From a bacterium (lineage in GTDB: Bacteria > Myxococcota > UBA727 > JAUIJE01), in contig JAUIJE010000003.1 in NCBI GenBank assembly GCA_030431455.1, forward strand, positions 8,360 to 72,359: a DNA stretch of 64,000 nt, given 5' to 3'. The translations under genes and the position numbers were made by a program. Position 1 is the stretch's first letter. Each line of letters starts with the position of its first letter. Of the stretch, positions 2,337-43,416 are shown in pieces. The notes under the pieces were generated by a model. That model had not been told where the DNA came from. It worked only from the letters and a program-made list of their open reading frames with translations, and did no database searches.

Positions 2337-2407
2337 GGCGTCCTTTCAGTACCACGCGGGGCTCTCGTCCCGCCTCTTTTGCGCCCGATCCGCGCGGGCG
2401 GGACCGC

Positions 2408-3658: not shown

Positions 3659-3813
3659 GAAGGAGCCTTTCGCCTGACAGGTAGAGCCAGGATACCAGGG
3701 CGATTTCGATCCCTGATTCCCGGGCCGATGCGCCCGGTCACACGACGGTAGACAAATGTAGGTGCGGTGCTGCCCCGCTTCCGTTCGGGCGCCAATTTTG
3801 GGAAACGAGGGCG

Positions 3814-24372: not shown

Positions 24373-24415
24373 GACCGGCGCGCCAACGCTGTCTCAAGGC
24401 GGGCGCCGGGGGCGC

Positions 24416-25621
24416 TCAGAACCGTTCGATCTTGAAGTCGTCGTCGACCGGGGCGCCGGTCTGGCTCCGGACCGGGTTCTGCGGGGGCTGGCTGGGCGCG
24501 GCCGGCCGGCTCTGGCTTTGTTCGAAGTCGTCCCAGCGGGAGTCGGACGTGCCCCCAATGCCACTGACCCGCAGCTTGAAGTCGTCGGGGTTGGTGGCCT
24601 GGCGCACCGCCTCTTCGAAGGTGATGAGTTTGCGCGAGAGCAGCGACATCAAGGACTGGTCAAAGGTCTGCATCCCGTAGGTGGTGTAGCCGGCGGAGAT
24701 CGCGTCGTTGAGTTCTTTGGTGCGGTCTTTGTCCTCGATGAGCTCGCGCACCCGGGCGGTGGCCCGCAGCACTTCCACCGCCGCGACCCGGCCGCGCCCG
24801 TCGGCGCGGGGCACCAGGCGTTGCGACACCACCGACCGAAGAATCGCGCCCAGCTGGAGCCGGACCTGCTTTTGTTGGTAGGGCGGAAACGCCGCCACCA
24901 CGCGGGTGATGGTCTCGGTGGCGTCGAGGGTGTGCAGGGTGCTCATCACCAGGTGACCGGTCTCGGCCGCGGTCATCGCGGTCTCGATGGTCTCCAGGTC
25001 GCGCATCTCACCGACGAGGATGACGTCGGGGTCTTCGCGCAGGGCGCTCTTGAGGGCCCGGGCAAAGCTGCGGGTGTCGACGCCCACTTCGCGCTGGTTG
25101 ACGATGGACCGCTTGTCACGAATGAGGAACTCGATCGGGTCTTCGATGGTGAGGACGTGGCACGTGCGGTTGGTGTTGATGTGGTCGATGAGCGCGGCCA
25201 GGGTGGTGGATTTGCCCGAGCCGGTGGTGCCGGTGACGAGGATGAGGCCACGCTCTTCGCTTGCCACCTTTTCGAGCACGGGGGGCAAGTTGAGCTCGGC
25301 GATGGTGAGGATCTTGAACGGGATGACCCGGAACACGATGCCCACGGTGCCGCGCTGCATAAAGCAGTTGACCCGGAACCGGCCCAGGCCGGGCACGCCG
25401 TAGGCCAGGTCGATCTCGTTTTCCTTTTTGAAGACATCCTTTTGGTAGTTGTTCATGATCGAAAAGGCCATGCGACCGACCTCTTCGGGGGGCAGCCGGC
25501 GCGCGTCTTTCAGCGGCACCAACGACCCGTCGACCCGGAACATCGGGGGCAGGCCCGCCTTCAAGTGGATGTCCGAGGCGCTGCCTTTGATCGCGACGGT
25601 GAGGATGTCGTTGAGCTCCAC
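24416..25621 (-). CDS. pilT: type IV pilus twitching-motility ATPase PilT, with a ~50-aa C-terminal extension
   Basis: Walker A GTTGSGKSTT. PilT-specific motifs (EDPIEF, AHLVMSTLHT, AIRNLIRE-like VRELIEDKD). 401 aa. Confidence 0.9.
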   Translation of the reverse strand: MELNDILTVAIKGSASDIHLKAGLPPMFRVDGSLVPLKDARRLPPEEVGRMAFSIMNNYQKDVFKKENEIDLAYGVPGLGRFRVNCFMQRGTVGIVFRVIPFKILTIAELNLPPVLEKVASEERGLILVTGTTGSGKSTTLAALIDHINTNRTCHVLTIEDPIEFLIRDKRSIVNQREVGVDTRSFARALKSALREDPDVILVGEMRDLETIETAMTAAETGHLVMSTLHTLDATETITRVVAAFPPYQQKQVRLQLGAILRSVVSQRLVPRADGRGRVAAVEVLRATARVRELIEDKDRTKELNDAISAGYTTYGMQTFDQSLMSLLSRKLITFEEAVRQATNPDDFKLRVSGIGGTSDSRWDDFEQSQSRPAAPSQPPQNPVRSQTGAPVDDDFKIERF

Positions 25622-25694
25622 GCTGGCTCCTTCGTTCGGCGGTCAGGCTATCTCATCTCGAACCGTGGCATCGGCAGGCGATACAGTCCGTGTC

Positions 25695-26904: not shown

Positions 26905-28653
26905 CTAAAGCCGCAACGACTCGATGTCGTCGGGGGCGGCGCCGTCCGGGTCGACGGTGACGGTGTAGCGGCCCGAGCGGGTCTTGGACTTGCTGACGAC
27001 CTTGCCGCTCACGAGGCCGCCCTTGGCGGTCTTGAGCGTGACCTTGGCGCCGACCTTGAGGCGCTGGGCCTGCTTGGCCGCGACGGTGGCGTAGACGGTG
27101 CTGGGGCCGGACGACTCGATCACCGCCACCGCGCTCCCCGCGCGCAGGGCATCGCCGGCCTTGACCGACAGGCTCTTGACCTCGCCGGAGATGGACGCGG
27201 TCACCGTGCCCCCCGCCCCGCCCTTTTTGGCTTGGGCCAGCTTTTTGCGCTCCTGCTCCAGGGCCTGTTTGGCCTCTTCCGAGCCGGAGCTGTTCACGAC
27301 TTCTTCGAGGGCGGCCACGCTTTCTTCGAGCCGGGCCACGTCGTCACCACCGCTGCCCGCGGCCACGACCAAGGTGTCGCCGGCGTCCACTTTGTCGCCC
27401 ACCGCGACGGCCACGCGCTCGATGGTGCCCGACACCTTGGCCGACACCGTGGCCTTGCGCGCGCGCGCCGCAGTGACATTGACGGGCACCCACGTCACCT
27501 TGCTCGGGGGCTCCGCGGCCGCGGCCGCGGCCGGCTCGGGGGCGGGCTCGTCGTCGTCCTCGTCCTCATCGGCGGCGGCCGCGCCGGACGCGGTCGCCGG
27601 TTTGCGGCGGGTGGACCGGCGGGCCTTGGCGACCTTCTTGGGCGCGGGGGCCGGCTCGTCGGTGGCCGGGGGCGTGGGGGGCGGATCGGGCTCGGCCGGC
27701 TCGTCGGCCGCGGGGGCGGGCTCGGCGGGGGCGTCGTCGACGGGCGCGTCTGCCGCCGGGGCATCCGCGGGCGGGGGCTCGGTGCCGGGGGCCGGGTCTG
27801 CGGGATCTGGGGGCGCATCCCCGGGCGCGTCCACCGCCCCGGCCCCGAGGGGGGTGTCGGCGGGGGGCGGGGGCGCGGGGTCGGTCGGCGCGGGGTCCTC
27901 GTCGGCCTGGGCCACCACCGGGATGGCCCCGTCCCCGACGAACAACATGCCCGCGTAGGCCCCGCCCCCGATGAACAAGGCCACGAACAGCCCGATGAAA
28001 AACGACGGCCACGCCGAACCCCGGCGCACGGGTGCAGTGACATGGGGCCGGGACAGCTCGGTGTTTTTTGGGTCCCAGGCGTCGGTGGGCGGGGGGGTGA
28101 GCGGGGCCTCCACCGCGATCTCGGGCGGAGAGAACTCCACGAACTCGCCCGGCGCGGGCTCCGCCACCGGGGGCATCGGGGGGTCGACCGAGGTGTCCGC
28201 ATCCACCGAGGTGTCCTCGGCGGAGACCAAAAACGGGGCTTCGTCCGCGGGGGCCGCGCGGCTCGGAACCGATGTCGACATGCCCGGGCTCACCGCGGTC
28301 TTGTCGCTCATGCCCTCGGTCTGGGAGAAGCGAAGCTTGCAGCCACAGATCTGGATGGTGTCGCCGTCGACCAGGGGCTGGCGGCGGATGGCCCGGCCGT
28401 TGACGATGGTGCCGTTGCGGCTCTCCTCGTCGATGAGCACGTATTGCTCCCCGTCGGCCACGATCTTCGCGTGGGTCTTGGAGACCCCGGGCTCCTGGGG
28501 CAAGTACAGGTCACTGCCCGGCCGCCGGCCGATCACAAATGTCCCTGCAGACAGCTCCCACGAACGGCCCGCCACCGTGCCTTCGATGCACACGATCTGC
28601 CCGGACAAGACCGAGGGCAGCTGGAAAATGACGGTGCGTTCGTTGTCGCTCAT
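26905..28653 (-). CDS. FHA-domain membrane protein with a Pro/Ala/Asp-rich periplasmic linker and a C-terminal biotinyl/HlyD-like barrel domain
   Basis: N-terminal FHA domain (GRRPGSDLYL..SKTHAKI..NGTIVNG), a single TM helix (AWPSFFIGLFVALFIGGGAYAGMLFV), a long P/A/D-rich low-complexity region, and a C-terminal lipoyl/HlyD-like fold. Confidence 0.7.
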   Translation of the reverse strand: MSDNERTVIFQLPSVLSGQIVCIEGTVAGRSWELSAGTFVIGRRPGSDLYLPQEPGVSKTHAKIVADGEQYVLIDEESRNGTIVNGRAIRRQPLVDGDTIQICGCKLRFSQTEGMSDKTAVSPGMSTSVPSRAAPADEAPFLVSAEDTSVDADTSVDPPMPPVAEPAPGEFVEFSPPEIAVEAPLTPPPTDAWDPKNTELSRPHVTAPVRRGSAWPSFFIGLFVALFIGGGAYAGMLFVGDGAIPVVAQADEDPAPTDPAPPPPADTPLGAGAVDAPGDAPPDPADPAPGTEPPPADAPAADAPVDDAPAEPAPAADEPAEPDPPPTPPATDEPAPAPKKVAKARRSTRRKPATASGAAAADEDEDDDEPAPEPAAAAAAEPPSKVTWVPVNVTAARARKATVSAKVSGTIERVAVAVGDKVDAGDTLVVAAGSGGDDVARLEESVAALEEVVNSSGSEEAKQALEQERKKLAQAKKGGAGGTVTASISGEVKSLSVKAGDALRAGSAVAVIESSGPSTVYATVAAKQAQRLKVGAKVTLKTAKGGLVSGKVVSKSKTRSGRYTVTVDPDGAAPDDIESLRL

Positions 28654-30665
28654 GGCGCGGCGGGCTCGCTCGGGGGTTGGATATCAAACAATACCGCACC
28701 CGCCTTCTCGCCTTTTTTCGCCACCCGGGCCTCGGCCACGACGCGGCGCGGCAGCACCCCGTGCGCCTCCAGGTACGCCTTCACCACGTCGGCGCGCTCC
28801 TGGGCTTGGGGGAGGCCCTTTTTCTTCTTGGCCAGCACCACGACCTTGACCTGTTCGATCCCGCGCTCCACCAGCAACACATCCACCACATCGTCGAGCA
28901 CAAACGCGGCCGCGCTCAGCAGCTCGGCGCTGCGCGAGGAGAACGCCACGTTGGCCGCGGTCTCGATCCGCCCCTCCACGCGCTTGGCGATGCGCCGGGC
29001 CGGGACTTTGTTGAGGCGGAACGCAACCTGAACCGGCTCGCCCATCACCGCCTCCACCACCCGGCCCGCGCGCAGGTACCCGTCGCTGTGCGCCTGCAGC
29101 ACCCAGGTCCCGGGCTCCACCGCGGTGGTGAACCGCCCGCCCTCGACGTCGACCTCGACAAAGCCTGAGCCGTCCTGCCGGGTCAACTCCACCGTGCCCG
29201 GGAGGGCCACGTCGTCGACTTCGCCCCGCACCGAGCCTTGCAGCGTCACCCGCTGGATCGGCCGCTCCAGCACCACCCGGCCGGGGGCGCCGTCTTCCAA
29301 TGTCACAGCGTTGTCCTCGAAGCCCTCCAGCGACACCGTCACCCGCCGGGTGGCGGCGGTCTCGGCCCACCCCCGGACACACCCGTCGTCGCCGGTGAGG
29401 CTGTCCGGCAACCCCCCGTCGCTGAACGACACCCGGGCCCCGGGGAGCGCGAGGCGCGCGCCGTCGGTGACGCAGACCTCCACTTTTTGCACCGCCGGCG
29501 CCGCGCCGTCGGGGGTGGCCGCCCCCTCGGGAAAATCGCCGCCCGCCGCCTCCGCCGGGGCCGACGACGACGGTGACGACGACGAGAACGCGTCCATGGA
29601 CACCGTCACCGAGCCCCCCGCGAAGTACAGCGGATTCAACGGTTGGCCATCGACCACGTTGGCCAGCGAGGGCGGGACGTAGCCGGCGTTTCCGGTGGGG
29701 CCAATGTCACAGAACAGCTCGAAGGTGACACCTTGAAATGGCGTCACCCGCACCCCCGGGGTCACCACCGTGTGGGGATCGAACACAAAGTCATAGTCGG
29801 CGCCCGAGGCCCCGCGCCCCGCGGGCACCATCAACGCGCCCTGCCACCAGGCCTCGACGAACGGGGTGACAAACGGCAAGGGCACCTCGACCGCCACCCC
29901 GCCAAACGCTTGGTCGTACCACCAATAGTCGCCGGCGGCGGCGAGCACGTGGCCGTCGACCCCTTGCAGGTAGTACCGGGCCCGGGTGTCGACCGGCGCG
30001 AGGTAGTGGGCGTTTTGGTACCGGTACCCGCCGTTGAGGTGGGCGCGAAAGGGCAAGCCGTAGGCGTCCGCGAGGTCGACGGTGACCAGGGCCGCGACCT
30101 GGGCGGAGAGGTTGAGGTAGTCCGGCACAATGCCATTGAGACGGGCCGGCATCGTGACCTGGGCGGACAGCCCCGCGGCCACGGGAATGGGAAAATCTGT
30201 GAACAGCCCCACGAGGCCCACCGGGTTGAGCTTGGCCCCGACGGAGAACTGGGGCGCGGCTTGGCGGGTGGAGTAGTCGCCGATGGTGTTTTCCGTGCCC
30301 GCGCCCAGGGCCTGAGCGGACAGCTCGACGAGGTCAAAAAAGCCCAGCGCGGCCGCGCCCCGGGCCCGCACGATGACCTGCTGGTCGACGTCAGGCCCGA
30401 CAAAATCCGGCAGATAGAACCCGCCCCCCGAGAGCTGGGCGGTGGCGGCCACCGGGCCGTACACCCGGGCCGAGGTCACCCGGCGCACCCCCACGAAGCC
30501 GTAGCGGTTGAGCACCCGGTCCGACGAGCCGAAGCCGAAGCCGTCGTCGCCGTCGTCCACGTCCGCCGCGGGCGCGGCCGCGGGTGCGTCCTGGGCGTGT
30601 GCGAGCGCCCCCCACAGACAGCCGAGGGCGGCCAGGGCGGGCGCGCAGGTTCGGGTCCCCCACAT
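28650..30665 (-). CDS. outer-membrane protein with C-terminal OmpA-like peptidoglycan-binding domain
   Basis: Signal peptide MWGTRTCAPALAALGCLWGALAHA. C-terminal OmpA_C-like segment (..AFSSRSAELLSAAAFVLDDVVDVL..VVLAKKKKG..RADVVKAYL). The stop of the upstream FHA gene overlaps by 4 nt. Confidence 0.65.
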   Translation of the reverse strand: MWGTRTCAPALAALGCLWGALAHAQDAPAAAPAADVDDGDDGFGFGSSDRVLNRYGFVGVRRVTSARVYGPVAATAQLSGGGFYLPDFVGPDVDQQVIVRARGAAALGFFDLVELSAQALGAGTENTIGDYSTRQAAPQFSVGAKLNPVGLVGLFTDFPIPVAAGLSAQVTMPARLNGIVPDYLNLSAQVAALVTVDLADAYGLPFRAHLNGGYRYQNAHYLAPVDTRARYYLQGVDGHVLAAAGDYWWYDQAFGGVAVEVPLPFVTPFVEAWWQGALMVPAGRGASGADYDFVFDPHTVVTPGVRVTPFQGVTFELFCDIGPTGNAGYVPPSLANVVDGQPLNPLYFAGGSVTVSMDAFSSSSPSSSAPAEAAGGDFPEGAATPDGAAPAVQKVEVCVTDGARLALPGARVSFSDGGLPDSLTGDDGCVRGWAETAATRRVTVSLEGFEDNAVTLEDGAPGRVVLERPIQRVTLQGSVRGEVDDVALPGTVELTRQDGSGFVEVDVEGGRFTTAVEPGTWVLQAHSDGYLRAGRVVEAVMGEPVQVAFRLNKVPARRIAKRVEGRIETAANVAFSSRSAELLSAAAFVLDDVVDVLLVERGIEQVKVVVLAKKKKGLPQAQERADVVKAYLEAHGVLPRRVVAEARVAKKGEKAGAVLFDIQPPSEPAAP

Positions 30666-31769: not shown

Positions 31770-34310
31770 ATGACGATCCGCCGTACGCCCACGTCCACGT
31801 ACAAGCCGAAGACCCAACGCAAGAGCATCAAACCGAGCCCCACGCGCACGACCTCGAACACGACGTCGAGTTCGTCGAGCTCGTCGACGCGCACCCCGGC
31901 CAGCACCGCCACCCAGCAGGCGAGCCGCACCCGGGCCGCGAACGCCGATGCCACCGCCCGCGCGCGGGTGGGCGCGTCGAACCCGTCCGGCACCGGTCGC
32001 GCCGGCGCGAGCGCCGCGCCCCCGCCCGAGAGCGCCCAAAAACGCGTCGAGCGCACCCGGGCCGACGCCCAAGAGGCGATCACCGCCGCCAACGACGTGC
32101 GCGCCCGGTACGACGACGCGCGCCGCGACCTGCTCCAAGCCTCGCTGCCGCGCTTTCTCGGGGGCAGCTCCCCGGCCGAGCGCGGGGACCTCGACAAGCT
32201 GCGGCGCCGCACGTCCCTGTTGCGCGACGCGAGCTTAAACGCGGACAAGAACGCGTACGAAAAAACCCAAACCGCGCTCGACGCCCAGCGCGAAGCCGGC
32301 GTCGCCCCCGCGCGCGCCCGGGTGTTCGGCGGCCAAGCGCCGGTGCCCACCCACCTCGAGAACCTCACCCCCGGCGAGCGTCAACAGGTCGCGGGCCAGG
32401 ACGTGCCGAGCCGCATCGCCAACATCCCCGACCGCATCTACGCGCAATCGGAAGAAGGCCAGCGCGAGGCCCAGGTCAACGCCGCGGTCGACGACATCAA
32501 CCGCGCGGTGGACGGCATCGACAGCGACGCCGACAAAGGCACGCGCAACGGCCAGACCATCAACGCCACCGAGACCCTCGAGCGCACCTTGCGCGAGGCC
32601 CCGCCCGAGCTGCGCGGGGAGATCCTCGAGCAGAGCCGGGACGCCATCGAGCGGCTGACCCCCAACCTCAAGGACCTGAACAAAGACGAGACCACCCGCG
32701 CGGTGGAAAATCTCACCACCGCCACCGAACACGCCGGCGCCCAGAACGCGCATCTGCTCACCGACCCCATCGCCGAGCAGGTGCAGGCGGGTTCGCTCGA
32801 GGAGCGCGGGTCGTTCTTGGGGCGGCACGATCACCGCAGCGAGCAGGAGTTTTCCGACTCGGTGCACGAGGTAATGCAGGACTCGGGGTCGGACCTGTTC
32901 GCCCGGTCGTTGGCCAACCAGCTGCACGAACGAGGCGACACCGGCTTTGCCAATGCCATTGCCACACACGGCGGGGTCCCGGGCAAAAACCTGCTCGAGC
33001 GCGGGAGCGAACTGTTCAGCAACGCGGTGGACAACGTCACCGGCTTCGTCGGCGACATCGCCAACGCGGGGGGCGATTTTATCCGCAACAAGATCGCGGA
33101 CATCGCCCAGATCGACCAGCGCGTGGCCGAGCTGAACTCCGAAGGGGATTCGTTCACATTGGGTCTCGGGGGCGAAGCCGCCGCCGGGGTCTCGGTGGGC
33201 GCGTCCGCCGAGATGGAGGTGCAAAGGACCGACGACGGCTACACCGTGACGGTGACCGGCGAGGCCTCGGCGGGCATCTTTGGCCAACTCGGGGCCAAGG
33301 CGGGGATCGGAGGCGGGGCCCTCGAGGGCCAGGCCAACGTCACCGGACAGGTCCAGGTCGAGGCCCACTTCGATTCCCTCGAGGAGGCCCAGCGGGCGGC
33401 CAGCACCATCGCGGGCATTGGCATTGGCACGGCGGTGGGCGGACCCGCGGGGGCGGTGGCCACCGGCGCCACCGCCACCGACGAGCTGCGGGCGTTCGGC
33501 GAGAACGTCACCGCCACCCGGATCGGGGTCGAGCTGTCCGGCTCGGTGGCGGCCGAGCTCGGGACCGAGGTCGGCCACGCCGGCCTCGGGGGCAGCGCCG
33601 AGATCGAAGCGTCGACGTCGGCCACGGTGGAGATTCGCCCCGGCGAAGCCCCGGCGTTGATCGTGGGCAGCGAGCTGTCCGGCGAGGCCAGCCTCAACGT
33701 GGGCATGGGCGATCTGGAGATGCCGGGGGGCGGTTCGCTCAACCTCGGCAGCGTGGGGGCCAAGGGCGGCGTCAGCGTCGAGACCCGCATCCCCCTCGAA
33801 GGCTTCTCGGTGCAGGACGCGCTCACCGATCCGGTGGGCACCCTGCGCGCGATCCCCGGCCGGATCGCAGACAGCGAAACCACGCTCAAGGCTGAAGTGA
33901 CATTGGAAGGCGAAATCAACCCCAGCATGAACCTCCCGGGGGACAACCAGGTCGGGTTCAACGGGGGCGGGGGCGCGCTCACCGCGGAGATCGCCGCCAC
34001 CATGCCCACCTCGGAGCTCGGCACCGCCGCGCGCCGGGCCCTGTCCGGCGATCTCGGGGGGGCGATTCGCGGCTTGTCCGACGAGGCCCAGCTCGACATT
34101 CAGATCGCCGCCCTCGACCGGCGCGGCTTCGAGATCGACGCGGACATCTCTGCGGGCATCTTCAAAGTCGGCGTCGAGGCCGCGTACATGACCGACGACA
34201 AGACCGACATCTTCACCTTCGAGGGCACGCCGCGCGAGCTCGGCCGCGAGGCCGCGGACTTCTTCGACACCCTCACCGACCCGCTGACCGAGAGCGTGAC
34301 CGGGGGTTGA
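31770..34310 (+). CDS. large hypothetical protein, paralog A of a tandem pair (no recognisable domain; C-terminal Gly/Ala-rich amphipathic beta-like segments)
   Basis: GGGAGG RBS. 846 aa with an S/T-rich N-terminus and no signal peptide. It shares long colinear similarity with the next gene (e.g. HRSEQE..DLFARSL..GGVPGKN..ELNSEGD.FTLGL..AHFD..A.TIAGIGI..AEVTLEG). Confidence 0.6.
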   Translation: MTIRRTPTSTYKPKTQRKSIKPSPTRTTSNTTSSSSSSSTRTPASTATQQASRTRAANADATARARVGASNPSGTGRAGASAAPPPESAQKRVERTRADAQEAITAANDVRARYDDARRDLLQASLPRFLGGSSPAERGDLDKLRRRTSLLRDASLNADKNAYEKTQTALDAQREAGVAPARARVFGGQAPVPTHLENLTPGERQQVAGQDVPSRIANIPDRIYAQSEEGQREAQVNAAVDDINRAVDGIDSDADKGTRNGQTINATETLERTLREAPPELRGEILEQSRDAIERLTPNLKDLNKDETTRAVENLTTATEHAGAQNAHLLTDPIAEQVQAGSLEERGSFLGRHDHRSEQEFSDSVHEVMQDSGSDLFARSLANQLHERGDTGFANAIATHGGVPGKNLLERGSELFSNAVDNVTGFVGDIANAGGDFIRNKIADIAQIDQRVAELNSEGDSFTLGLGGEAAAGVSVGASAEMEVQRTDDGYTVTVTGEASAGIFGQLGAKAGIGGGALEGQANVTGQVQVEAHFDSLEEAQRAASTIAGIGIGTAVGGPAGAVATGATATDELRAFGENVTATRIGVELSGSVAAELGTEVGHAGLGGSAEIEASTSATVEIRPGEAPALIVGSELSGEASLNVGMGDLEMPGGGSLNLGSVGAKGGVSVETRIPLEGFSVQDALTDPVGTLRAIPGRIADSETTLKAEVTLEGEINPSMNLPGDNQVGFNGGGGALTAEIAATMPTSELGTAARRALSGDLGGAIRGLSDEAQLDIQIAALDRRGFEIDADISAGIFKVGVEAAYMTDDKTDIFTFEGTPRELGREAADFFDTLTDPLTESVTGG

Positions 34311-34313
34311 TGG

Positions 34314-34345
34314 TTCAGCAATAAATTGCTGATTTTACAGTCATT
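34314..34345 (+). terminator. AT-rich perfect 18-bp palindrome TCAGCAATAAATTGCTGA followed by a T-rich tract, between the tandem paralogs (terminator or operator)
   Basis: Seen directly: 8-bp arms with a 2-nt loop, then ATTTTACAGTCATTTT. This is an unusually AT-rich patch in a 70% GC context. Confidence 0.35.
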
Positions 34346-34399
34346 TTCGTCGTCTTTGGCCGCGCCAAAAGCCGCCGCGGTCCGATAGATCCCTCACCC

Positions 34400-36835
34400 A
34401 TGGTTGTCCGGCGCTCCCCGCCCCCGTCTGTCCAGGTTCCGCGCTCCCGCGCCGCCGATTCGGCTGTCCCCGCCGCGTCGGCGCAGGAGACGACGGCCGC
34501 GTCCCCCGCCGCGTCCCCAGACGGCATCGACCGCGGGCCCGGCCAAAGCGCCCGGCCCGGCCAAAGCCCCGATGTCGCCGGGTTGCGCGCCGCCGCCCGG
34601 GCCGCGCTGGCCGCGGCCCAGGAGGCCCGCCACGCCGCAGACCAGGCCCAGGACGCGCTGTTGCGCGCCGAGCTGCCGGTGGTCAGCCACGAACTCGGCG
34701 CGCTGTTGCCCCCGCCGTTGCCCGGCCACGACGCAGAGACATTGTCACGGCTCCAGGCGCAGGCCACCCGCCTCGAAGACAAGAGCGCGGCCGCCGACCG
34801 CGCCGCCCACGACGCGCTCAACGCGGTGCTGCACGCCACCCACGGCGCCGGCCAAGCCCCGCATCACGTGCGGCTGGGGGGCCACCTCGCGCCGCTGCCC
34901 GCGCGGCTGTCGCAGCTTCTCGACGAGGAGCGCGCGGCGTTGGCCGGCCAGCCGGTGCCCGACCGCATCGCCCGCGTGGCCCAGCCCGACGACGGCGCCG
35001 CCCGCCGCGCCACAATGCTCAAGGGTCACCTGCGCACCCTGCGCGACGCGGTGGACGGCATCGACGGGCGCAAAAAGGCGCGGAACCGGGCGACCTTGGC
35101 CGCGGTCGCCACCGTCGCGCGCACCGTGGCGGACGCCCCCGCCGAGCTGCGCCCCATGTTGCTGCACCAGGCGCGCCCGGTGTTGATGCGCCTGAGCCTC
35201 GCGCTCCAGGACCTGGGCCCCGACGACACCCGCGCCGCCGTCGAACAGCTCAGCGCCGCGGCCGAGACCCTGGGACCGGCTCAGGTGTTTTTGCTCACCA
35301 GCCCGCTGGCCAGCGAAATCGCCGCCGGCAGCCTCGAGGAGGACAACACCTTCCTCAACCGGCGGCGACACCGGAGCGAACAAGAGCTCTGCGACGCCGT
35401 GCACGCGGTCATGAACGACACCGGCCACGACCTGTTCGCGCGGTCGTTGTGCCAACAGCTCGTGGTCCTCGACGATCTGGGCTTCGCCCAGGCGGTGGCG
35501 GTGGGCGGCGCGGTCCCGGGCAAGAACACCTGGGAACGCGGCAGCGAGCAGCTCGACGACGCGCTCCGGGATGTCAGCGCCTTCGTCGGCGACCTCGCCA
35601 ACTCGGGCGGCGACTACCTGCGCGAGCGCATCGCCGACTTGAGCGGCATCGACCACAAGATCGCCGAGCTGAACAGCAAGGGCGACAAGTTCACCCTCGG
35701 GCTCGAGGTCGAGGTCGCCACCGGGGCGGCGGTGTACGCCGCGGCCGAGCTCGAGGTCAAACGCAAAAAACACGGCCACTACGAGGTCACCATCTCGGGG
35801 GCGGCGGGGGCGGGCATCTTTGGCGCCCTCGGGGCCAAGGCCGGCCTGTTCGGCGGGGCCCTCGATGGGGAGGCCTACGCTTCTGGGTTCGTCGAAGTGG
35901 AGGCCCATTTTGACACCCGGGAAGAAGCTCTGGCCGCCGCCCGCGCCATCGCCGGCATTGGCATTGCGAGCGGGCTGACCGGCCCGGTGGGCGCCCTGGT
36001 GGTGGGGGCCACGGCCAAGGACGAACTGCGGCCTTTCCTCGACGGGCTGCACGCCACCCGGCTCGGCATTGAGCTCGAAGGAAAAGCCGAGCTCGACCTC
36101 GGCTTTGCCATCGGCCACGGTGGGCTCGCGGCGGAAAATGAGATCAAGGCCACCGCGTCGGCCACGGTAGAGCTGCGGCCGGGCCGCGCCCCCGCGCTGG
36201 TGGTGGCCAGCGAGCTCGAAGGCGAAAGCGTGCTCCGGCTGGGCCACGAAAAACTCAAGCTCCCCGGCGGGGGGGAACTCGAGCTGGGCAGCGTCGGGGC
36301 CAAGGGCACGGTGAGCCTCGAGACCAGCGTGTCGCTCGAGGGCATGAGCCTGCGCGACGTGCTGCGCGACCCGGTCAAGACGGTGCGGGGTCTGAAGAGC
36401 CGGCTCGCCGAGGCCGAGACCACCCTCGCCGCTGAAGTGACATTGGAAGGCCTGTACAACGCCGAGGGCGACCTGCCCCTGCACAGCGACATGAAGCTCA
36501 CCGCGGGGGGCGCCGCGGTCACCGCCGAGCTGGCCGCGACGTTGCCCCACAAAGACCTGGGCGAGTCCGCGCGGCGGGCGTTCGGGGGCGACCTCAAGGG
36601 GGCGCTGTCCGCGCTGTCCGACGAAGCGGTGCTCGAGGTCGAGACCCACGCGCTGGACAAGCGGGGGTTCGACATCGAGGCCGGCATCGAGGTGGGCATC
36701 TTCGCCATCGGGGTCGCGGCCGAGTATCTCACCGAGGACAAGACCAAGATGTTCGCCTACGAGGGCAGCCCGCGCGAGCTGCTCGACGAGGCGGCGGACT
36801 TTTTCCACCGCGTCACCGGCTCGATCACCGCCTAG
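34400..36835 (+). CDS. large hypothetical protein, paralog B of the tandem pair
   Basis: 811 aa, colinear with paralog A. It shares identical nucleotide blocks with paralog A (GCTGAAGTGACATTGGAAGG; GGCATTGGCATTG). Confidence 0.6.
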   Translation: MVVRRSPPPSVQVPRSRAADSAVPAASAQETTAASPAASPDGIDRGPGQSARPGQSPDVAGLRAAARAALAAAQEARHAADQAQDALLRAELPVVSHELGALLPPPLPGHDAETLSRLQAQATRLEDKSAAADRAAHDALNAVLHATHGAGQAPHHVRLGGHLAPLPARLSQLLDEERAALAGQPVPDRIARVAQPDDGAARRATMLKGHLRTLRDAVDGIDGRKKARNRATLAAVATVARTVADAPAELRPMLLHQARPVLMRLSLALQDLGPDDTRAAVEQLSAAAETLGPAQVFLLTSPLASEIAAGSLEEDNTFLNRRRHRSEQELCDAVHAVMNDTGHDLFARSLCQQLVVLDDLGFAQAVAVGGAVPGKNTWERGSEQLDDALRDVSAFVGDLANSGGDYLRERIADLSGIDHKIAELNSKGDKFTLGLEVEVATGAAVYAAAELEVKRKKHGHYEVTISGAAGAGIFGALGAKAGLFGGALDGEAYASGFVEVEAHFDTREEALAAARAIAGIGIASGLTGPVGALVVGATAKDELRPFLDGLHATRLGIELEGKAELDLGFAIGHGGLAAENEIKATASATVELRPGRAPALVVASELEGESVLRLGHEKLKLPGGGELELGSVGAKGTVSLETSVSLEGMSLRDVLRDPVKTVRGLKSRLAEAETTLAAEVTLEGLYNAEGDLPLHSDMKLTAGGAAVTAELAATLPHKDLGESARRAFGGDLKGALSALSDEAVLEVETHALDKRGFDIEAGIEVGIFAIGVAAEYLTEDKTKMFAYEGSPRELLDEAADFFHRVTGSITA

Positions 36836-38816
36836 CCGCCCGCTGTTCGAGCCCGAGGGCCACCGCCAAGCTCGCCGCGCAGAACACGTCGAGCCCAGCC
36901 TCGGACGGCGCCGCCCCCACCACCGCGGAGACCGCCCCCACCCGGGCCGCAATCGTGGACAGCCCGACCTCTGCCAATGTCTGCGCAGACCGTTCGAGGG
37001 CTTTTTGGCGCCGGGCGGATCGGCGCCCCACCCCCGCTTGCGCCAGCTCTTCGAGCCCGGCGCGCGCCTGCCGCAGCGCTTCTTGCACCGGGTCGGCGGA
37101 GGTCTCGAAGCTGGGCACGACCTCGAGGTCGTCCGGCCGCGCCACCGGCTGATGCAGATCGAGGGCGATGACCCGGTCGGTGACCAACAACATGGGGCGA
37201 AGCTCGGCCCCCCGCGGCGACAAGGTCAGCACCCCGGACAGGTACCGCACCGCGTTCGCTTTCACCGCGGCCAAAAAGACATCCACCGCGCCCGGGGTCA
37301 GGGCCCGGTGCTCGATGACCGCCTCCACCGCGACCCCGTCGTGTCCCACCACCTGGGCCCGGGCTTGCTGCGCGCCCGGCGCGTACACCGGCTCGGACAC
37401 CTCGGCCGGGCACAACGCGACGACGTTCTCGGCCAGCACCCGCGGCCGCAAAAACCGCGTGGGGCGGCGGCGCCAATGTGACAGGACCGGCGCGAAGTCC
37501 CGGTGCAGAACCTTGTCGGACCAGGACGCCCAGTCTCCCGACTGCGGCATCACCGACACTTTGCTCAACATCGCCTGGCCGAGGACGAGCGCGCGGTTGG
37601 GCCGGCGCTTGACCGCCTCGGTGAGCAGGTGCCCCTCGGCCAGGGCCCGGAGCTTGACCCCCCGGGCCATCAACCGCCCCCCCAGGGCAGGCCCGGTCGC
37701 CTCCCCCTGCGCGGGCCCGGGAAAACTCTTGGCCAGCACCAGCACGTTGCCCTGGTCGGGCTCGAGCAGCACCACCTCGGCGCGCACCTTGTCATCGTCC
37801 CGCCAGAGGCGGCAGCCCAATGAAACAGCACGCAAGCGCTTCAGCCGGGTCTCGGTCTTGACCTCGGTGCCGAGCACTTCGCTCTGGGGCAGGGGCGCGT
37901 CCTCGGTGTTCGCGGTGCGGCGCCTGGCCTCCAGTTCGCTCACCAGGTGCAGCAGCCGGGCCCCGGAAAAGCGCGCCGACCGGGTCTGGTAGGCCTCCAG
38001 TTGGTCCACGAGGTCGTCGGCACAAGACGCGGGCCAGGTGAAGCCCGCGTCGACGAGCGCCCCCCGTGCCGACCGCAGGCGGGCCACCATCGCGGGGTCG
38101 CAGCCCGACGCCCCCCCGAACAGCAAGCTGACCAGGCCGTCGCGGGCGGGGGCAAACGCTCCGTCGACGTCGAGCCGACGGGCGGGCTGGAGGTATACGG
38201 TGTGGGGGCGCGCGGCGCGACCGGATGCCCGCACCGCCCACACCGCCAAGGCGTGGTGCACACACGCCCCGCTGACGTCGCAATCGCATTGTGCGAACGC
38301 CAGGTCGCCCCCCAGCACAAACCGCACTGTGGAGGTGGGCAGCTCTACGGTGAGAATGCCCCCGGGCCCATCCAGGACCTCGGCCCGGAACCCCGCCCGC
38401 CGGACCTTCTCCGCTTGGCGGTACAGGCGGGCGTGCAGGTGGGCCTTCAGCGCGTCGTCGTCGATATCCGCCACCGGGGCGGCGGCCGGGGCGGACGCAG
38501 CGCCGGTTCCGGCCGCGTCGGGGCCGGAGGGGGCCGCCCGGGCGCGGTAGGCCATGACCAGCAGCAACGCGTGGCGGCACACCCCGGTGGACGCGCAGCT
38601 GCATTGGGCGTCGGATAGGGCGGTGCCGGGGGGCAGCCGGGTCTCGACCGCGTCGTCCTCGCTGACCACGGTGCCGTCGGCCTCGATGCGCAATGTCTCC
38701 GGACGGCCGGCCTCGCACAGCCGCCGGGCGCGCTTGACCAACCCCCGGTTGCTGAGCGCCACCAAGCGGTCGTCGTCGAGCACGAGGAGGTCGTCGCGCG
38801 CGCTCACCGGAGACAA
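36825..38816 (-). CDS. SWIM zinc-finger domain protein (YehQ-like component of MoxR-vWA system)
   Basis: SWIM CxC..CxH signatures (CSCASTGVCRHALLL and CDCDVSGACVHHAL). It is the last gene of the AAA-DUF5682-vWA-SWIM operon. Confidence 0.7.
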   Translation of the reverse strand: MSPVSARDDLLVLDDDRLVALSNRGLVKRARRLCEAGRPETLRIEADGTVVSEDDAVETRLPPGTALSDAQCSCASTGVCRHALLLVMAYRARAAPSGPDAAGTGAASAPAAAPVADIDDDALKAHLHARLYRQAEKVRRAGFRAEVLDGPGGILTVELPTSTVRFVLGGDLAFAQCDCDVSGACVHHALAVWAVRASGRAARPHTVYLQPARRLDVDGAFAPARDGLVSLLFGGASGCDPAMVARLRSARGALVDAGFTWPASCADDLVDQLEAYQTRSARFSGARLLHLVSELEARRRTANTEDAPLPQSEVLGTEVKTETRLKRLRAVSLGCRLWRDDDKVRAEVVLLEPDQGNVLVLAKSFPGPAQGEATGPALGGRLMARGVKLRALAEGHLLTEAVKRRPNRALVLGQAMLSKVSVMPQSGDWASWSDKVLHRDFAPVLSHWRRRPTRFLRPRVLAENVVALCPAEVSEPVYAPGAQQARAQVVGHDGVAVEAVIEHRALTPGAVDVFLAAVKANAVRYLSGVLTLSPRGAELRPMLLVTDRVIALDLHQPVARPDDLEVVPSFETSADPVQEALRQARAGLEELAQAGVGRRSARRQKALERSAQTLAEVGLSTIAARVGAVSAVVGAAPSEAGLDVFCAASLAVALGLEQRAARR

Positions 38817-39925
38817 TCCGCCACGAACTGGGCCAAATGCGCGGGGGTCATCGCGCCCACGAACGCGCCGAGGTCGGCCAGGGTCTGGCCCAACTGCCGG
38901 TCGTAGTCAGGGGCGGCGTTGTCGTCGAGGGCGGCGAGCACGAGCACCTTGGTGCCCTGGCTGCAGAGGTCCCGGACCTGCTGGATCAACCAGCGCGCGT
39001 CCCCCCCTTCGTAGAGGTCGGTGAGCAGCACCATGATCGCGCGGCGGGGCGACGCCACCAGGGAGGCCCCGTAGGAGACGGCGCGGGCGATGTCGGTGCC
39101 CCCGCCGAGCTGCACCTTCATCAGGGTCTCCACCGGGTCGGTGACGTGGTGGGTGAGGTCGACCACCTCGGTGTCGAACACGCAAAGGTGGGTGCGGATC
39201 TGGGGCAAGCCGTGCAAGCACGCGGCGGTCACCGACGCGTGGATGGTCGAGGGCAACATCGAACCGCTTTGATCGACGAGGATGATGATTTGCCATTTCT
39301 CGGAATGTCGACGTGCGCGGGACGAGAACACCGCGCGCTCGAGCACCAGCCTTCGGCGCGCGGGGTCGTAGTGCTTGAGGTTGGTGCGCAAGGTGGTGCG
39401 CAGATCGAAGTTGGCCGCGATCTTGTGGGCGCTGCGGCGGCGGCGGTCGAGGGTCCCGGTGAACGCGGTGCGCACCTCGACGGCCAGGCGCTCCATCAGC
39501 TCGCGCACCACCTGCTGGATGATCTTGCGGGCCATGGCGAGCACCTTCTCGTTCATCAGGTGCTTGGTGCGCAAAACCGCCTGAAGCAGTGACTCGGACG
39601 GCACCGCTTGTTCGAGAATGGCGGGGTCGGTGACGACCTCGTCGATGTGGTACCGCTCGACCGCGTCGGTCTGGAGGCGCTCGATGGTGTCCTGCGGGAA
39701 CAGCTCGTGGATCGCGTGGATCCACTCCGGCACCGTCAACGTCGACGGGCCCGGGCCGCCCTCGCGGGTGTGCAGGTCGCGCTCGGCCATCGAGGGGTCG
39801 CGGTCGTACAGCCAGGACAACGCCGCGTCCATGGCCGAGACCTCGCCTTCGCCCCGCCCGAGCACGGCCTCGCTGGCTTGGCCCAACACCAGGCGCCAGC
39901 GGTCGATGGGGTCGAGGTCGCTCAT
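38804..39925 (-). CDS. vWA-domain protein (YehP-like)
   Basis: vWA/MIDAS region IILVDQSGSM..T. The start is chosen at the ATG overlapping the upstream stop (ATGA); an alternative start lies 21 nt upstream. Confidence 0.7.
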   Translation of the reverse strand: MSDLDPIDRWRLVLGQASEAVLGRGEGEVSAMDAALSWLYDRDPSMAERDLHTREGGPGPSTLTVPEWIHAIHELFPQDTIERLQTDAVERYHIDEVVTDPAILEQAVPSESLLQAVLRTKHLMNEKVLAMARKIIQQVVRELMERLAVEVRTAFTGTLDRRRRSAHKIAANFDLRTTLRTNLKHYDPARRRLVLERAVFSSRARRHSEKWQIIILVDQSGSMLPSTIHASVTAACLHGLPQIRTHLCVFDTEVVDLTHHVTDPVETLMKVQLGGGTDIARAVSYGASLVASPRRAIMVLLTDLYEGGDARWLIQQVRDLCSQGTKVLVLAALDDNAAPDYDRQLGQTLADLGAFVGAMTPAHLAQFVADCLR

Positions 39926-42228
39926 GGGGTGCTCTCCTCGGGCCACCAGCCGTAGTCGATGCCCTGGACCGCCACCGCGCGGTCGAGGGCCCGGGCCTCG
40001 ACCAGCTCGTCCGCCGACGCCGCCGGGCGCAAGAGGTCACGCGCGTCGGGTGGCGCCTCGGCCCCGAGCAACGCGGCCACCACCGCGGCCAGCGCCTCCC
40101 GCTCCCGGGGCGGAAAGTACGCGAAGGAATGCCGCAGCGCGGGCAACGTGGCCAAGAACTCCGCTTGCGACAGCTGGCACAACACCTCGTGCACCGCCCC
40201 GACCAGCGACGGGTCCACGCCGATCTCGACCCGGGCGAGACAAAACAGACCGGCGAGAAAGTCCCCCAGCTGCGACGGGGGCGCGGCCTGGAGCATGGCC
40301 CGGCGATCCCCGGGCAGCCGGCTCGGCGCGTCCTCGTCGTCGTCGACAAGGCTGATGTGCGCGCCCCACGCCGCCCCCCGCAGCCCGCACGGGCAGTCCG
40401 CGTCCAAGGCGCGGCGGCGGAAGGTGGCGCGCACCGCGGCGCCGGTGGCGTCGGCGACCCCGCCATGCCGGACCACGTCGCGCAGCCCCAGCGCCAAATC
40501 CAAATGTGACTGGGTGAGCCCAGCGGTCGCGCCGGACAACATGTCGGCGTGCCACAGGGCGCGGTCGGTCAACGCCTCGAGCAGGGCCGCGACCTGGGGG
40601 TCCCCTTGCCCCCCGAAGCGCGCATCGTGGCGGTGCACGGCCAACAGCCTCGACAGCGCCGGGCCCACCTCGTCGAGCTTGGCGTGTTGCATACGTTGCG
40701 CGAGCACGGCCAAGGCCCGCGCGTCGATGTCGGCGAGCCCGGCGAACCGGGACATCAACAGCACCTCCACCAAGGCGTCGAGCGGGGCGTCGGCTTCGAG
40801 CATCTCGGACAGCCGGCGCCGGGCTGCGTCCTCGATGGTGGCCCCGTAGGCCCCCGCCTCGATGGCGCTGGCCTCGGTCTCGAGCGTCCACCGCACGTTC
40901 CAATGCTCTTGGAGCTCGACGTCGTGAACGGTGGCCGGCCCCGCGGCGCGCACGACGCCGTGGATATCGAGCAGGCGGAGGCGGTGAAGCACCGCGCTCT
41001 GTTGGCGGTGCGCGGCTTGGTGCAGGTCGAGCGACACCGGCACGGTGTCGGCCGAGAACGCGACCCCCCACGATCGCAGGGCGGCGTGTACGTCGTGCAA
41101 CAGCGGGGGCCGGGGGGTGTCGGGGTGCAAGCGGCCGCGGTCGTCGCCCGACAGCACCCGCAGGATCTCCACCAACAACGGGTCGGTGTGGGCGGCGATG
41201 GGCGCGCGCCGGGTCCAGGGCAGCGGCATGTCGAGGGCGCCCTTGACCAACGACGCGGCCAGGCCGTCGAGGAGGTCGACGCGCTGAACCGCCTCGTGAC
41301 CACGCAGCCGGGCCAGGCCTCCGGCGAGGGTGCGGGCGGCGATCAGGTCCGCGGTGGAACACGTCTGGTTCTTGTCGCGGAGGCGGACCACGATGCGGGC
41401 CAAGGCCTCATCGACGGCGCGTTCGGGGCCGTGGTCCCACACCATTTGGTAGTAGCCGGGGGAGGGCATGCCCGACTGGTACCCGGTGAAGCTGTCCAGG
41501 CGGTGAAAGGTGTAGGGCACCAAATAGGTGCCAAGCTCCGCGTCCTCCTCGGGGACGATGTCGGCCGGCGGCGTGTCCGACGGGGTCGCGTCCTCCAGCG
41601 CGGGTTGGTGAAAACCACCGCACACCACCACCACGGTGTCGTGCCGGGCGAGGGCGTGGGCCACGTGCGCCCGCATGTAGGCCTCACGGCGCTCGTCCCG
41701 CGCCTCCGCGGGGTTGGCCTCGCGCAACAGCCGAAAGTAGATTTGGTGGCGTTCGGCCCGCACCTCGTCGTCCAAGGCTTGCTCGAACACGTGGTCCCAC
41801 ACCGCGTCGTACCCGTCGGCGGAGAAGGCCTCGCACAGGCGCTCGGCCCAGGGCATGGGGGCCCGCGGGGCATGGTCGTAGACACGGTCCCGGTAGCGGT
41901 TCTCGACGTCGGCGAAGGCTTCGTGCCAGGCCGGCAGATCGATGAACGCGAGCTCGGCCCCGGTCTGCTGCCCCGCGCGCAAGGCGCGCCACTCCGGGGA
42001 ATAGCCACAAAAAGGGGTCCAGGAGCCGTGCGTGTGAGGCCCCTGCCGATGATGCGAATAAAGCGCCACCGGGGGCTGGTGGTCGAGCAGCAACTCCGGC
42101 AGCCGGGGGGTAAAGTCCGCGGGTCCCTCGACGAGCACCGCGCCCGGGCGCAGCCGGTCGATGGTGCGCTCGACCCAGCCCGCGCAGGCGGGGCTGTGGT
42201 GACGGACACCGAGCACCACCAATGTCAT
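39922..42228 (-). CDS. DUF5682 family protein (YehM-like)
   Basis: 768-aa protein positioned between the MoxR-like ATPase and the vWA gene, as in E. coli yehLMPQ. It starts MTLVVLGVRHHSPACA. Confidence 0.6.
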   Translation of the reverse strand: MTLVVLGVRHHSPACAGWVERTIDRLRPGAVLVEGPADFTPRLPELLLDHQPPVALYSHHRQGPHTHGSWTPFCGYSPEWRALRAGQQTGAELAFIDLPAWHEAFADVENRYRDRVYDHAPRAPMPWAERLCEAFSADGYDAVWDHVFEQALDDEVRAERHQIYFRLLREANPAEARDERREAYMRAHVAHALARHDTVVVVCGGFHQPALEDATPSDTPPADIVPEEDAELGTYLVPYTFHRLDSFTGYQSGMPSPGYYQMVWDHGPERAVDEALARIVVRLRDKNQTCSTADLIAARTLAGGLARLRGHEAVQRVDLLDGLAASLVKGALDMPLPWTRRAPIAAHTDPLLVEILRVLSGDDRGRLHPDTPRPPLLHDVHAALRSWGVAFSADTVPVSLDLHQAAHRQQSAVLHRLRLLDIHGVVRAAGPATVHDVELQEHWNVRWTLETEASAIEAGAYGATIEDAARRRLSEMLEADAPLDALVEVLLMSRFAGLADIDARALAVLAQRMQHAKLDEVGPALSRLLAVHRHDARFGGQGDPQVAALLEALTDRALWHADMLSGATAGLTQSHLDLALGLRDVVRHGGVADATGAAVRATFRRRALDADCPCGLRGAAWGAHISLVDDDEDAPSRLPGDRRAMLQAAPPSQLGDFLAGLFCLARVEIGVDPSLVGAVHEVLCQLSQAEFLATLPALRHSFAYFPPREREALAAVVAALLGAEAPPDARDLLRPAASADELVEARALDRAVAVQGIDYGWWPEESTP

Positions 42229-42232
42229 GGCA

Positions 42233-43336
42233 TCACGTCCCGAGACGGTGGCGGGCCTCGTACAGCGCGGTCCAGTGGGCGCCCTTCTTCTTGGGCACCC
42301 GGCGCTCGAGGTAGGCGCGCAGTCGTTTGAGGTCTTCGGCGTCGTCCTTGGCCGCGACCCCGGCCAAACATTCGACCAGGTCGGCGGCGGAGACTTTTCC
42401 CTCGGTGAGGTAGTGGCTGCGCACCCCCAACAGGTGCGCCACGCTCACCGCTTCGGCGGTGGACAGCACCGAAGACAACCGCTCGGTGGCGTGGCCCTGG
42501 GTGGTGACCCCGGTGCGCAGGTCGCGGAAGGTGGTGACCAAAATCTCGAGAATCTCGTCGGGGGGCCGCGTGTGTACGCCCGAACGTTCGAGCAGGCGGG
42601 TGGCTTCGCGCTTGACCAGGTTGAGCTCGACCTGGAAATCGTTGATGGGAAAAATCGTCTCAAAGTTGAGCCGGCGCTTCAGCGCCGCGCTCATCTCGTG
42701 CACCCCGCGGTCGCGGGTGTTGGCGGTGGCGATGAGGTTGAAGCCCTCTTTGGCAAACAACATCTGCTCGAGCTCGGCCACCGCGAGCTGGCGGTCGGAC
42801 AGCACCGACAAGAGCGCGTCCTGCACCTCCAGCGGGCAGCGGGTGATTTCTTCGAAGCGCACGATCGCGCCTTCTTTCATCGCGGTGTACAGCGGCGCGG
42901 GCACGAGGGCTTTTTCCGTCGGGCCTTCGGCCACGAGCAGCGCGTAGTTCCACGAGTATTTGATGTGGTCCTCGATGAGCGAAGCCCCCCCTTGGATGGT
43001 CAACGTCGACCGCCCTGAGATGGCCGCGGCCAGAAGCTCAGACAGGAGCGACTTGGCGGTCCCGGGCTCCCCGACAAGCATCAGGCCCCGATTTGTGGCA
43101 AGCGTGACCATGGCCCGCTCGACCAGCGACGGGGCCCCGACGAACTTCTTGCTGATGTCGCGGTCGCCATCGCCGAGGATAAACGCCCGCACCGCGGGGA
43201 GCGAGAGCCGCCAACCGGGCGGCTTGGCCGCGGTGTCGTCTTGGGCCAGCCGCGCGAGCTCGTCGGCATACAGCACTTCGGCGGGGGGCCGCTGCAGGTC
43301 CGGCGACGGGGACGGGCGCGATTTGGACTTGGGCAT
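42233..43336 (-). CDS. MoxR-like AAA+ ATPase (YehL-like)
   Basis: Walker A GEPGTAKS, Walker B/sensor regions and the MoxR-type lid. The real start is at MPKSKSR.. (ATG at 43336). Confidence 0.8.
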   Translation of the reverse strand: MPKSKSRPSPSPDLQRPPAEVLYADELARLAQDDTAAKPPGWRLSLPAVRAFILGDGDRDISKKFVGAPSLVERAMVTLATNRGLMLVGEPGTAKSLLSELLAAAISGRSTLTIQGGASLIEDHIKYSWNYALLVAEGPTEKALVPAPLYTAMKEGAIVRFEEITRCPLEVQDALLSVLSDRQLAVAELEQMLFAKEGFNLIATANTRDRGVHEMSAALKRRLNFETIFPINDFQVELNLVKREATRLLERSGVHTRPPDEILEILVTTFRDLRTGVTTQGHATERLSSVLSTAEAVSVAHLLGVRSHYLTEGKVSAADLVECLAGVAAKDDAEDLKRLRAYLERRVPKKKGAHWTALYEARHRLGT

Positions 43337-43416
43337 GGGGCCTCCACCAACCGGTGTGACGGTACCCCAAACGGTCCGGTTTTGCCGTGCTAAAGATCGC
43401 GCCACCGGAGGTGACG
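43337..43416. promoter_or_regulatory. Divergent intergenic region between the MoxR-vWA-SWIM operon and the WGR-DUF4132 gene
   Basis: 80-bp spacer between two divergently oriented starts. GGAGGTGA Shine-Dalgarno before the ATG at 43417. Confidence 0.3.

Follow-up and report, generated by a model that had tools for sequence, protein, structure and literature searches.

The 64,000-nucleotide stretch of DNA analyzed here (the window; positions 8,360 to 72,359 of contig JAUIJE010000003.1, assembly GCA_030431455.1, from a bacterium placed by GTDB in the Myxococcota, UBA727, JAUIJE01) carries two adjacent genes that, judged from their sequences, are old tandem paralogs of a rare, undescribed family of modular proteins. 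Gene A (31770..34310) was called in the list of open reading frames (ORFs) and encodes 846 amino acids (aa), and gene B (34400..36835; database entry P0001) encodes 811 aa; both are on the plus strand, as are all features described below unless stated otherwise. Each is a full paralog of the other with the same two modules, the first N-terminal and helical, the second C-terminal, about 400 aa long, and predicted to be rich in β-strands. The role that we favor for these proteins, tentatively, is that of Sec-independent effectors similar to polymorphic toxins, in which the β module would insert into or cross a membrane as a pore or translocation conduit.

A first-pass annotation of the window had described the two ORFs with these lengths and positions and as colinear over most of their length, and both observations hold. 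In a BLASTP comparison, 703 colinear residues of A and B align with 51% identity and 67% positives (E = 0). The called ATG of each gene is the first start codon after the respective upstream stop, a Shine–Dalgarno-like GGGAGG lies 4 nt upstream of the ATG of gene A, and the proteins share their first residues (MTIRRTP and MVVRRSP, i.e., M-[TV]-[IV]-R-R-[TS]-P), which supports the start calls. The window has a GC content of approximately 70%, and the codon bias of both genes is that of real genes, with a GC content of 0.90–0.91 at third (GC3) and 0.50–0.54 at second codon positions. Over aligned codons, the nucleotide sequences are 61% identical; together with the 51% aa identity this indicates an old duplication rather than an assembly artifact. 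That the pair reflects a duplicated assembly, or that one copy is a pseudogene, is so extremely improbable that we regard it as ruled out: 39% of the aligned nucleotides differ between the copies, both ORFs are uninterrupted with the GC3 values of intact genes, and a Logan assembly made independently from run ERR3420974 (L001) has both genes in the same order. Gene B is present in NCBI and in Logan records. The proposal that the family had duplicated locally is thus borne out by the tandem pair, and a third paralog (P0010), from the same genome or sample, is encoded at another locus; it is 559 aa long, consists of a leader and a β module only, and is 51% identical.

Two exact nucleotide blocks shared by the two genes had also been reported, and both are real. 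The 20-nt block GCTGAAGTGACATTGGAAGG is identical in A (33891-33910) and B (36431-36450), and the block GGCATTGGCATTG is found at 33414 (33414-33426) and at 35954. The window contains just these two copies of each block, with the same 2540-nt offset, compared with 0–0.01 matches expected from shuffled sequences. In genes with 91% GC3, the 20-nt block encodes AEVTLEG by codons that end in A/T or are rare (gct gaa GTG aca TTG gaa), and the alignment of A and B has 14 A/T-ending codons in common against 6.9 expected, a 2-fold excess. We rejected the block as a conserved element because it is confined to A and B and missing from other homologs; therefore, it represents either a short tract of gene conversion or rare codons that have been retained as a cluster.

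Neither protein has a recognizable domain. Searches of A and B against Pfam, NCBIfam, PADLOC, and PHROGs gave nothing above threshold (A has no Pfam match whatever, and B has two sub-threshold matches to unrelated families), and profiles built from the full alignment and from the alignment of the C-terminal module found nothing among all PDB sequences. When 24 β modules were compared with Pfam at E ≤ 1, no consistent family emerged, and DUF2188, LEA_2, and Bactofilin appeared as isolated sub-threshold matches. The family is novel, as had been suspected, in that it is without a match in four hidden Markov model (HMM) libraries or in PDB, and neither the libraries nor the PDB profiles linked it to a characterized housekeeping family. 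It is also rare: When 1.84 billion representatives of clusters at 50% identity were searched exhaustively with a HMMER profile, 171 clusters were recovered at E ≤ 1e-3 and 33 at E ≤ 1e-30, whereas two scans of the 185,579 species-representative genomes of GTDB, with patterns from two different alignments, and one Joint Genome Institute (JGI) metagenome scan found no close relative. These searches bear on the phylogenetic distribution, which the annotation had proposed to check. A word-indexed protein search with A returned only five relatives, one of which is B. A itself is invisible to word-indexed homology searches because it is filed under a 56-aa peptide of Bacteroides uniformis, which represents its cluster at 90% identity, presumably by way of a poly-Ser run.

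To describe the architecture of the family, HMMs were made separately for the N-terminal and C-terminal halves. Approximately 100 representatives contain the β module only, behind unrelated N-termini, approximately 50 contain the helical module only, before other, mostly unannotated C-termini, and a minority of representatives, A and B among them, contain both. The existence of members with only one of the two halves shows that the helical and β halves are independent modules.

A structural model of full-length A was built with AlphaFold2 (AF2) on a 6-sequence alignment. The protein begins with a basic leader (aa 1-83; 31770..32018) that is rich in Ser, Thr, and Pro, lacks a hydrophobic core, and is predicted to be disordered, with a predicted local distance difference test (pLDDT) score below 50; the net charge of A is +14 over the first 100 aa, −57 over the rest, and −43 overall. 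The leader is followed by the helical N module (about aa 87-405; 32028..32984), which is predicted to be all-helical with pLDDT mostly 80–93 and which the HMM defines as aa 140-405. In B, the corresponding module spans aa 114-374 (34739..35521; hmmsearch envelope 114-374, E = 6e-108). The module is approximately 270 aa long, and its HMM also recovers the relatives that have this module only. The nonapeptide motif at residues 352-360 of A (about 32823-32849 in the window), R-x-x-H-R-S-E-Q-E, does not vary within the close subfamily. It is placed in a loop of low confidence where the helical module meets the linker, and it might serve for processing or for metal binding. The linker of A (aa 406 to about 439-453; 32985..33086) consists of low-confidence helices (pLDDT below 50 over 406-439) and reads VPGKN...FVGD..GGD, of which the motifs VPGKN and FVGD are conserved. 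Neither A nor B has a signal peptide, in agreement with the first reading of the sequence: Their N-termini are basic, Ser/Thr/Pro-rich, and predicted to be disordered, and because both ATGs are the first starts after the upstream stops no extension of the ORFs could add one.

The β module comprises aa 440-846 of A (33087..34307) and aa 409-811 of B (35624..36832; hmmsearch envelope 409-811, E = 2e-178, aligned with homologs). Modeled alone with AF2 on 24 diverse homologs, it is predicted with higher confidence than in the full model (pLDDT 77.4, predicted template modeling [TM] score 0.74). The model has 12 strands of 11–22 residues each and four helical segments, in the order strands 1–4, a 42-residue helix, strands 5–8, helices, strands 9–10, helices, strands 11–12, and a terminal amphipathic helix of approximately 24 residues. 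From the lengths of the connections, an up-and-down meander would put all four helical segments at the same end of the sheet. Hydrophobic and polar positions alternate in all 12 strands when averaged over the 24 sequences (Kyte–Doolittle values of approximately +2 vs. about −1 to −2), and the module is composed of 14% Gly, 13% Ala, 2.9% Phe, 1.2% Tyr, and 0.2% Trp. The Gly/Ala-rich alternating stretches that the annotation had seen in the C-terminal halves are therefore real and every predicted strand is amphipathic, but the β part corresponds to the last ~400 aa, is preceded by a helical linker, and has four helices inside it. Within the long helix that joins strands 4 and 5 is the Gly/Ala-rich hydrophobic segment TIAGIGIGTAVGGPAGAVATGATAT (33405..33479), a GxxxGxxxGxxxG glycine zipper that includes the GGCATTGGCATTG block and is the part of its helix with the lowest confidence; the G, P, and G that flank it are invariant in the close-subfamily alignment. 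An origin of the module from internal repeats was considered and rejected, the only sign of it being a single weak hairpin-to-hairpin match (hhalign 72%).

In a Foldseek search with the β module, all significant matches were outer-membrane β-barrels, with 12-stranded autotransporter translocators first; the top matches were the barrels of NalP, EspP, Hbp, AIDA-I, and BrkA (probability 0.96–1.0). The suggested likeness to membrane-inserting β-hairpins has thus gained support, as long amphipathic hairpins are predicted and the sole structural neighbors are membrane β-barrels. In the search for remote homology that had been recommended, Foldseek on the AF2 model yields only barrel neighbors, at low TM scores (0.27–0.42), and the profiles yield no PDB sequence match.

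These matches raise the question whether the module is a barrel inserted by the β-barrel assembly machinery (BAM) that anchors the protein in the outer membrane of the producer, in the manner of classical or inverse autotransporters (type V secretion). Besides the 12 predicted strands and the identity of the best Foldseek matches, this explanation can draw on some relatives in which the order of LysM, barrel, and an extra C-terminal domain mirrors that of intimin and invasin (PMC4943183). We nevertheless consider it very unlikely, in view of the lack of a Sec signal peptide in any member, the failure to match autotransporter, intimin-barrel, or any other outer membrane protein family of Pfam even at E ≤ 1, the amphipathic helix that ends the module in place of a terminal aromatic β-signal, the few aromatic residues, and the low TM scores.

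The domains to which the modules are fused in other members were identified with Pfam in a survey of 65 relatives and in separate scans of individual members. An N-terminal LysM domain was confirmed by Pfam in 4 of the 65 relatives and additionally in P0005 and P0123, none of which has a signal peptide, and further members look LysM-like by eye. Three relatives have Apolipoprotein-type amphipathic repeats, two have EF-hand matches (mostly under the Pfam cut-off), and other N-termini that precede the β module are long, Ala-rich coiled coils. Behind the β module, P0024 has a PG_binding_1 domain and P0020 has an Endonuclea_NS_2 domain (E = 8.9e-21) with the motif GH...N...N. The ATG of the ORF that follows the P0020 gene (L009 804-3385) overlaps the P0020 stop codon; an overlapping downstream ORF is the usual layout of a toxin gene and its immunity gene, and this ORF is a candidate immunity gene. 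A signal peptide was detected in none of the 124 full-length members, and no hydrophobic h-region is present in their first 45 aa save for two poly-Ala runs. These members are Cys-poor (0.10%) and acidic.

At one locus from a JGI metagenome (L003), a β-module gene is followed by a gene for a 1002-aa LysM protein (1798-4806), which has the helical module alone in common (34% identity) and a different C-terminus, and then by a third gene (5228-5617), the product of which has a similar basic leader and a peptidoglycan-binding-like motif. By sequence, the locus is a tandem array of genes for leader-bearing proteins. Just upstream of the gene for another member, P0022, an unannotated gene (L007 9036-9869, and L008 663-1496) encodes a 277-aa protein with a similar basic, Pro/Thr-rich leader that ends in D-D-F. 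The pattern D-x-F occurs within the first 130 residues of 28 of the 124 family members and may be a common short linear motif.

Several of these features, namely peptidoglycan-binding domains without an export signal, a nuclease with a candidate immunity ORF, low Cys content, an acidic body with a basic leader, and expansion of paralogs, point to unconventionally exported, envelope-directed effectors. The original suggestion of a secreted or contact-dependent effector or a pore-former is accordingly plausible on indirect evidence from the relatives, and the paralogs in one genome together with the L003 array fit an expanding effector family. The β module is the constant element and is either terminal or placed before a toxin or peptidoglycan-binding domain, for which reason we propose it as the membrane-active element. 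In such an arrangement, the leader and the helical module would handle export or presentation, and the β module would be the working end that binds and enters the membrane of a target envelope as a pore or translocation conduit. The β module would itself be the effector in most members, including A and B, and would carry or position an extra domain (nuclease or peptidoglycan-binding) in a few.

A number of observations weigh against this effector interpretation. The global fit to the Foldseek matches is poor (TM 0.27–0.42, root mean square deviation 13–17 Å), aromatic residues are scarce and form no aromatic girdle, and the hydrophobic face spans whole strands of 16–22 residues, which is more than a bilayer requires; a long hydrophobic face with few aromatics is no less compatible with a soluble barrel that has a hydrophobic interior. 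The nuclease fusion is seen in one relative only, and some N-termini in the family look like cytoplasmic amphipathic helices that bind membranes (MGLFDR-type) and like apolipoprotein repeats. Neither A nor B is adjoined by a secretion-system, adaptor, or immunity gene, and none was found in the sequence read around members at L002, L003, L004, L005, L007, L009, L010, L011, and L012 (L006 has a weak, partial match only). The annotation had recommended a search for co-occurrence with secretion-system genes; in the window and at these nine loci, none is linked.

The overlong hydrophobic strands and the missing girdle suggest that the resting state may be a soluble barrel, the hydrophobic interior of which may hold the Gly/Ala helix or lipid. 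This leads to an explanation in which the proteins are not secreted but are intracellular, lipid- or membrane-binding structural proteins that form a soluble barrel or tube around lipid or around their own Gly/Ala helix, with variable N-termini docking them on membranes or lipid bodies. It would account for the absence of a signal peptide from all 124 members, for the properties of the strands, and for the immunity and secretion genes not found near the genes at the loci read. In addition, many of the relatives that have only the β module begin with an MG[LI][LIF]D[RK] amphipathic helix, which we take to resemble the N-termini of PspA/Vipp1 or CsbD, or carry Apolipoprotein-type repeats. Lipovitellin and microsomal triglyceride transfer protein are among the weak fold matches of the full model, but at TM scores below 0.1. 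A cytoplasmic role is ill-suited to the LysM, PG_binding_1, and EF-hand domains and to the NucA-type nuclease with its candidate immunity ORF, and we judge the explanation as a whole to be unlikely, if worth keeping in view.

A low probability is likewise given to exported structural proteins of the envelope, matrix, or coat, which would be tethered to peptidoglycan, self-assemble, be exported without Sec, for example by type I secretion, and have no toxic function. An acidic, Cys-poor, Gly/Ala-rich composition would be in keeping with such proteins, as would the relatives with peptidoglycan-binding domains and long Ala-rich coiled coils and the lack of an immunity gene for A and B. A gene encoding an FHA domain N-terminal to an HlyD-type membrane-fusion region lies 3 kb upstream of A (26908-28683, minus strand), which would suit type I export, though no ABC exporter gene adjoins it. 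In P0020 and P0024, the β module is not at the C-terminus, contrary to a strict C-terminal type I signal, and Pfam detected neither RTX nor any other known repeat. Moreover, the nuclease fusion and the candidate immunity ORF point to conflict, and a core component of the envelope would not be expected to be as rare and patchy as this family.

The effector interpretation can be taken further, although we consider this extension decidedly unlikely. A predatory or competitive Myxococcota-like bacterium would export the β module unconventionally as a self-contained 12-stranded barrel that depends on neither Sec nor BAM and that inserts into the membrane of a target. The soluble form would hide the glycine-zipper helix, and in the target membrane the barrel would either form a pore from a single chain or act as a portable translocon for cargo such as the P0020 nuclease; the tandem proteins A and B may operate as a heteromeric pair.

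A signal for a type III secretion system (T3SS) was also considered as the means of export. The N-terminal rules known from T3SS substrates of P. syringae are a Ser-rich first 50 aa, an aliphatic residue or Pro at position 3 or 4, and no acidic residue at positions 1–12. A and B satisfy all three; however, only 12 of the 124 family members do so, about the rate among FabI controls (9 of 117), and we rejected the signal as a property of the family. No T3SS genes are present in the window.

Across the window and the nine loci, no neighboring gene is conserved. The pair is adjoined by a FabI gene, the best named relatives of which are 61–64% identical and come from metagenome-assembled genomes of Myxococcota or 'Deltaproteobacteria', and the host probably belongs to a Myxococcota lineage that has been poorly sampled. 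Abutting B, a minus-strand cluster (36825-46941) encodes a SWIM protein, convergent with B, followed by VWA_CoxE, DUF5682, and AAA_5 MoxR-like ATPase proteins and then by a divergent WGR-DUF4132 gene; this set resembles yehLMPQ/molR of E. coli. A functional link between the cluster and A and B was rejected, there being no such genes in the neighborhoods read around homologs elsewhere. The FHA-HlyD gene is near genes for an MshEN-domain protein and a T2SSE (PilB-like) ATPase (22570-25642). At the edge of the window, positions 3-752 encode a PduL-type phosphate propanoyltransferase (PTAC), and no microcompartment shell genes were found among the neighboring ORFs that were scanned.

The 89-bp spacer between A and B (34311..34399) is AT-rich and contains an inverted repeat and T-runs; it is a possible operator or promoter for B. 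The annotation had described an AT-rich perfect palindrome with a T-tract at this site. The inverted repeat, TCAGCAAT-AA-ATTGCTGA (34315-34332), is unique in the window and does have perfect 8-nt arms followed by T-runs, but its 2-nt center is not palindromic. A consensus scan of the spacer found neither a terminator-like nor a sigma-70-like site, and Rfam identified no RNA family within the window. The AT-rich repeat, TCAGCAATAAATTGCTGA, is located 68 bp upstream of B, and an AT-rich imperfect palindrome with the same AATAAAT core, CTCCTAATAAATAAGGAG, is present upstream of P0010 (L004 ~6096-6113); the resemblance is weak, and the two could represent a shared regulatory site.

For now, A and B represent a well-defined family rather than a demonstrated mechanism. 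If the proposed membrane insertion without Sec or BAM is correct, the β module would be a new type of single-chain, barrel-forming toxin or translocator, and the family would offer an entry to the question of how effectors of the peptidoglycan-binding and nuclease kinds, lacking recognizable export signals, are delivered in some poorly sampled Myxococcota-like bacteria. Even if the module is a soluble barrel with a hydrophobic lining, the family adds two new mobile protein modules that neither Pfam nor NCBIfam covers.

Among known systems, polymorphic toxins (PMC3482391; Zhang, Aravind et al. 2012) bring together adhesion domains of the LysM or PGB1 type and NucA-type nucleases, with immunity genes located downstream. 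The family resembles them in its variable N-terminal part joined to a central module, to which P0020 adds a C-terminal NucA-type nuclease and an overlapping small ORF, in the presence of LysM or PGB1 in some members, in the expansion of paralogs, and in the tandem arrays of related genes. Unlike polymorphic toxins, its members have no detectable trafficking domain of a known kind (such as signal peptide, two-partner secretion [TPS], PAAR/VgrG, or WXG/LXG), the N-terminal halves of A and B being blank in Pfam and NCBIfam, and A and B have neither a detachable C-terminal toxin nor an immunity gene. The 400-aa β module matches no pre-toxin or translocation domain that has been described.

With the type V barrels (NalP, EspP, Hbp, and intimin/invasin), the module shares 12 long antiparallel predicted strands, and these barrels are its only significant fold neighbors; it differs from them in having four helical segments that all emerge from one end of the strand meander, and the similarity is local (TM 0.27–0.42). 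It differs from type Va autotransporters in the missing signal peptide (0 of 124), the absence of a Pfam Autotransporter match at E ≤ 1, the lack of an aromatic β-signal, and the few aromatics. Inverse autotransporters (type Ve; intimin/invasin) consist of a signal peptide, an optional periplasmic LysM, a 12-stranded barrel, and a C-terminal passenger (PMC4943183). In contrast, A and B have no signal peptide, LysM, or passenger, and LysM or C-terminal extras are found in some relatives only. Type I substrates of the RTX type have nonapeptide repeats rich in Gly, a C-terminal signal, and a linked exporter made up of ABC, MFP, and TolC components. They are distinguished from the family by the lack of an RTX/HemolysinCabind match in Pfam, by the internal position of the module in P0020 and P0024, and by the FHA-HlyD gene standing alone.

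Pore-forming toxins offer a further comparison. Solved representatives gave no sequence match in the PDB profiles and no fold match in Foldseek. Glycine zippers are known from pore-forming toxins, the VacA type being an example, and the model suggests a likeness to glycine-zipper and β-barrel pore-forming toxins in its GxxxGxxxGxxxG segment, its amphipathic hairpins, and the acidic, potentially convertible soluble protein that contains them. Each subunit of the known β pore-forming toxins supplies one or two hairpins, whereas the β module of A and B is predicted to provide 12 strands from a single chain.

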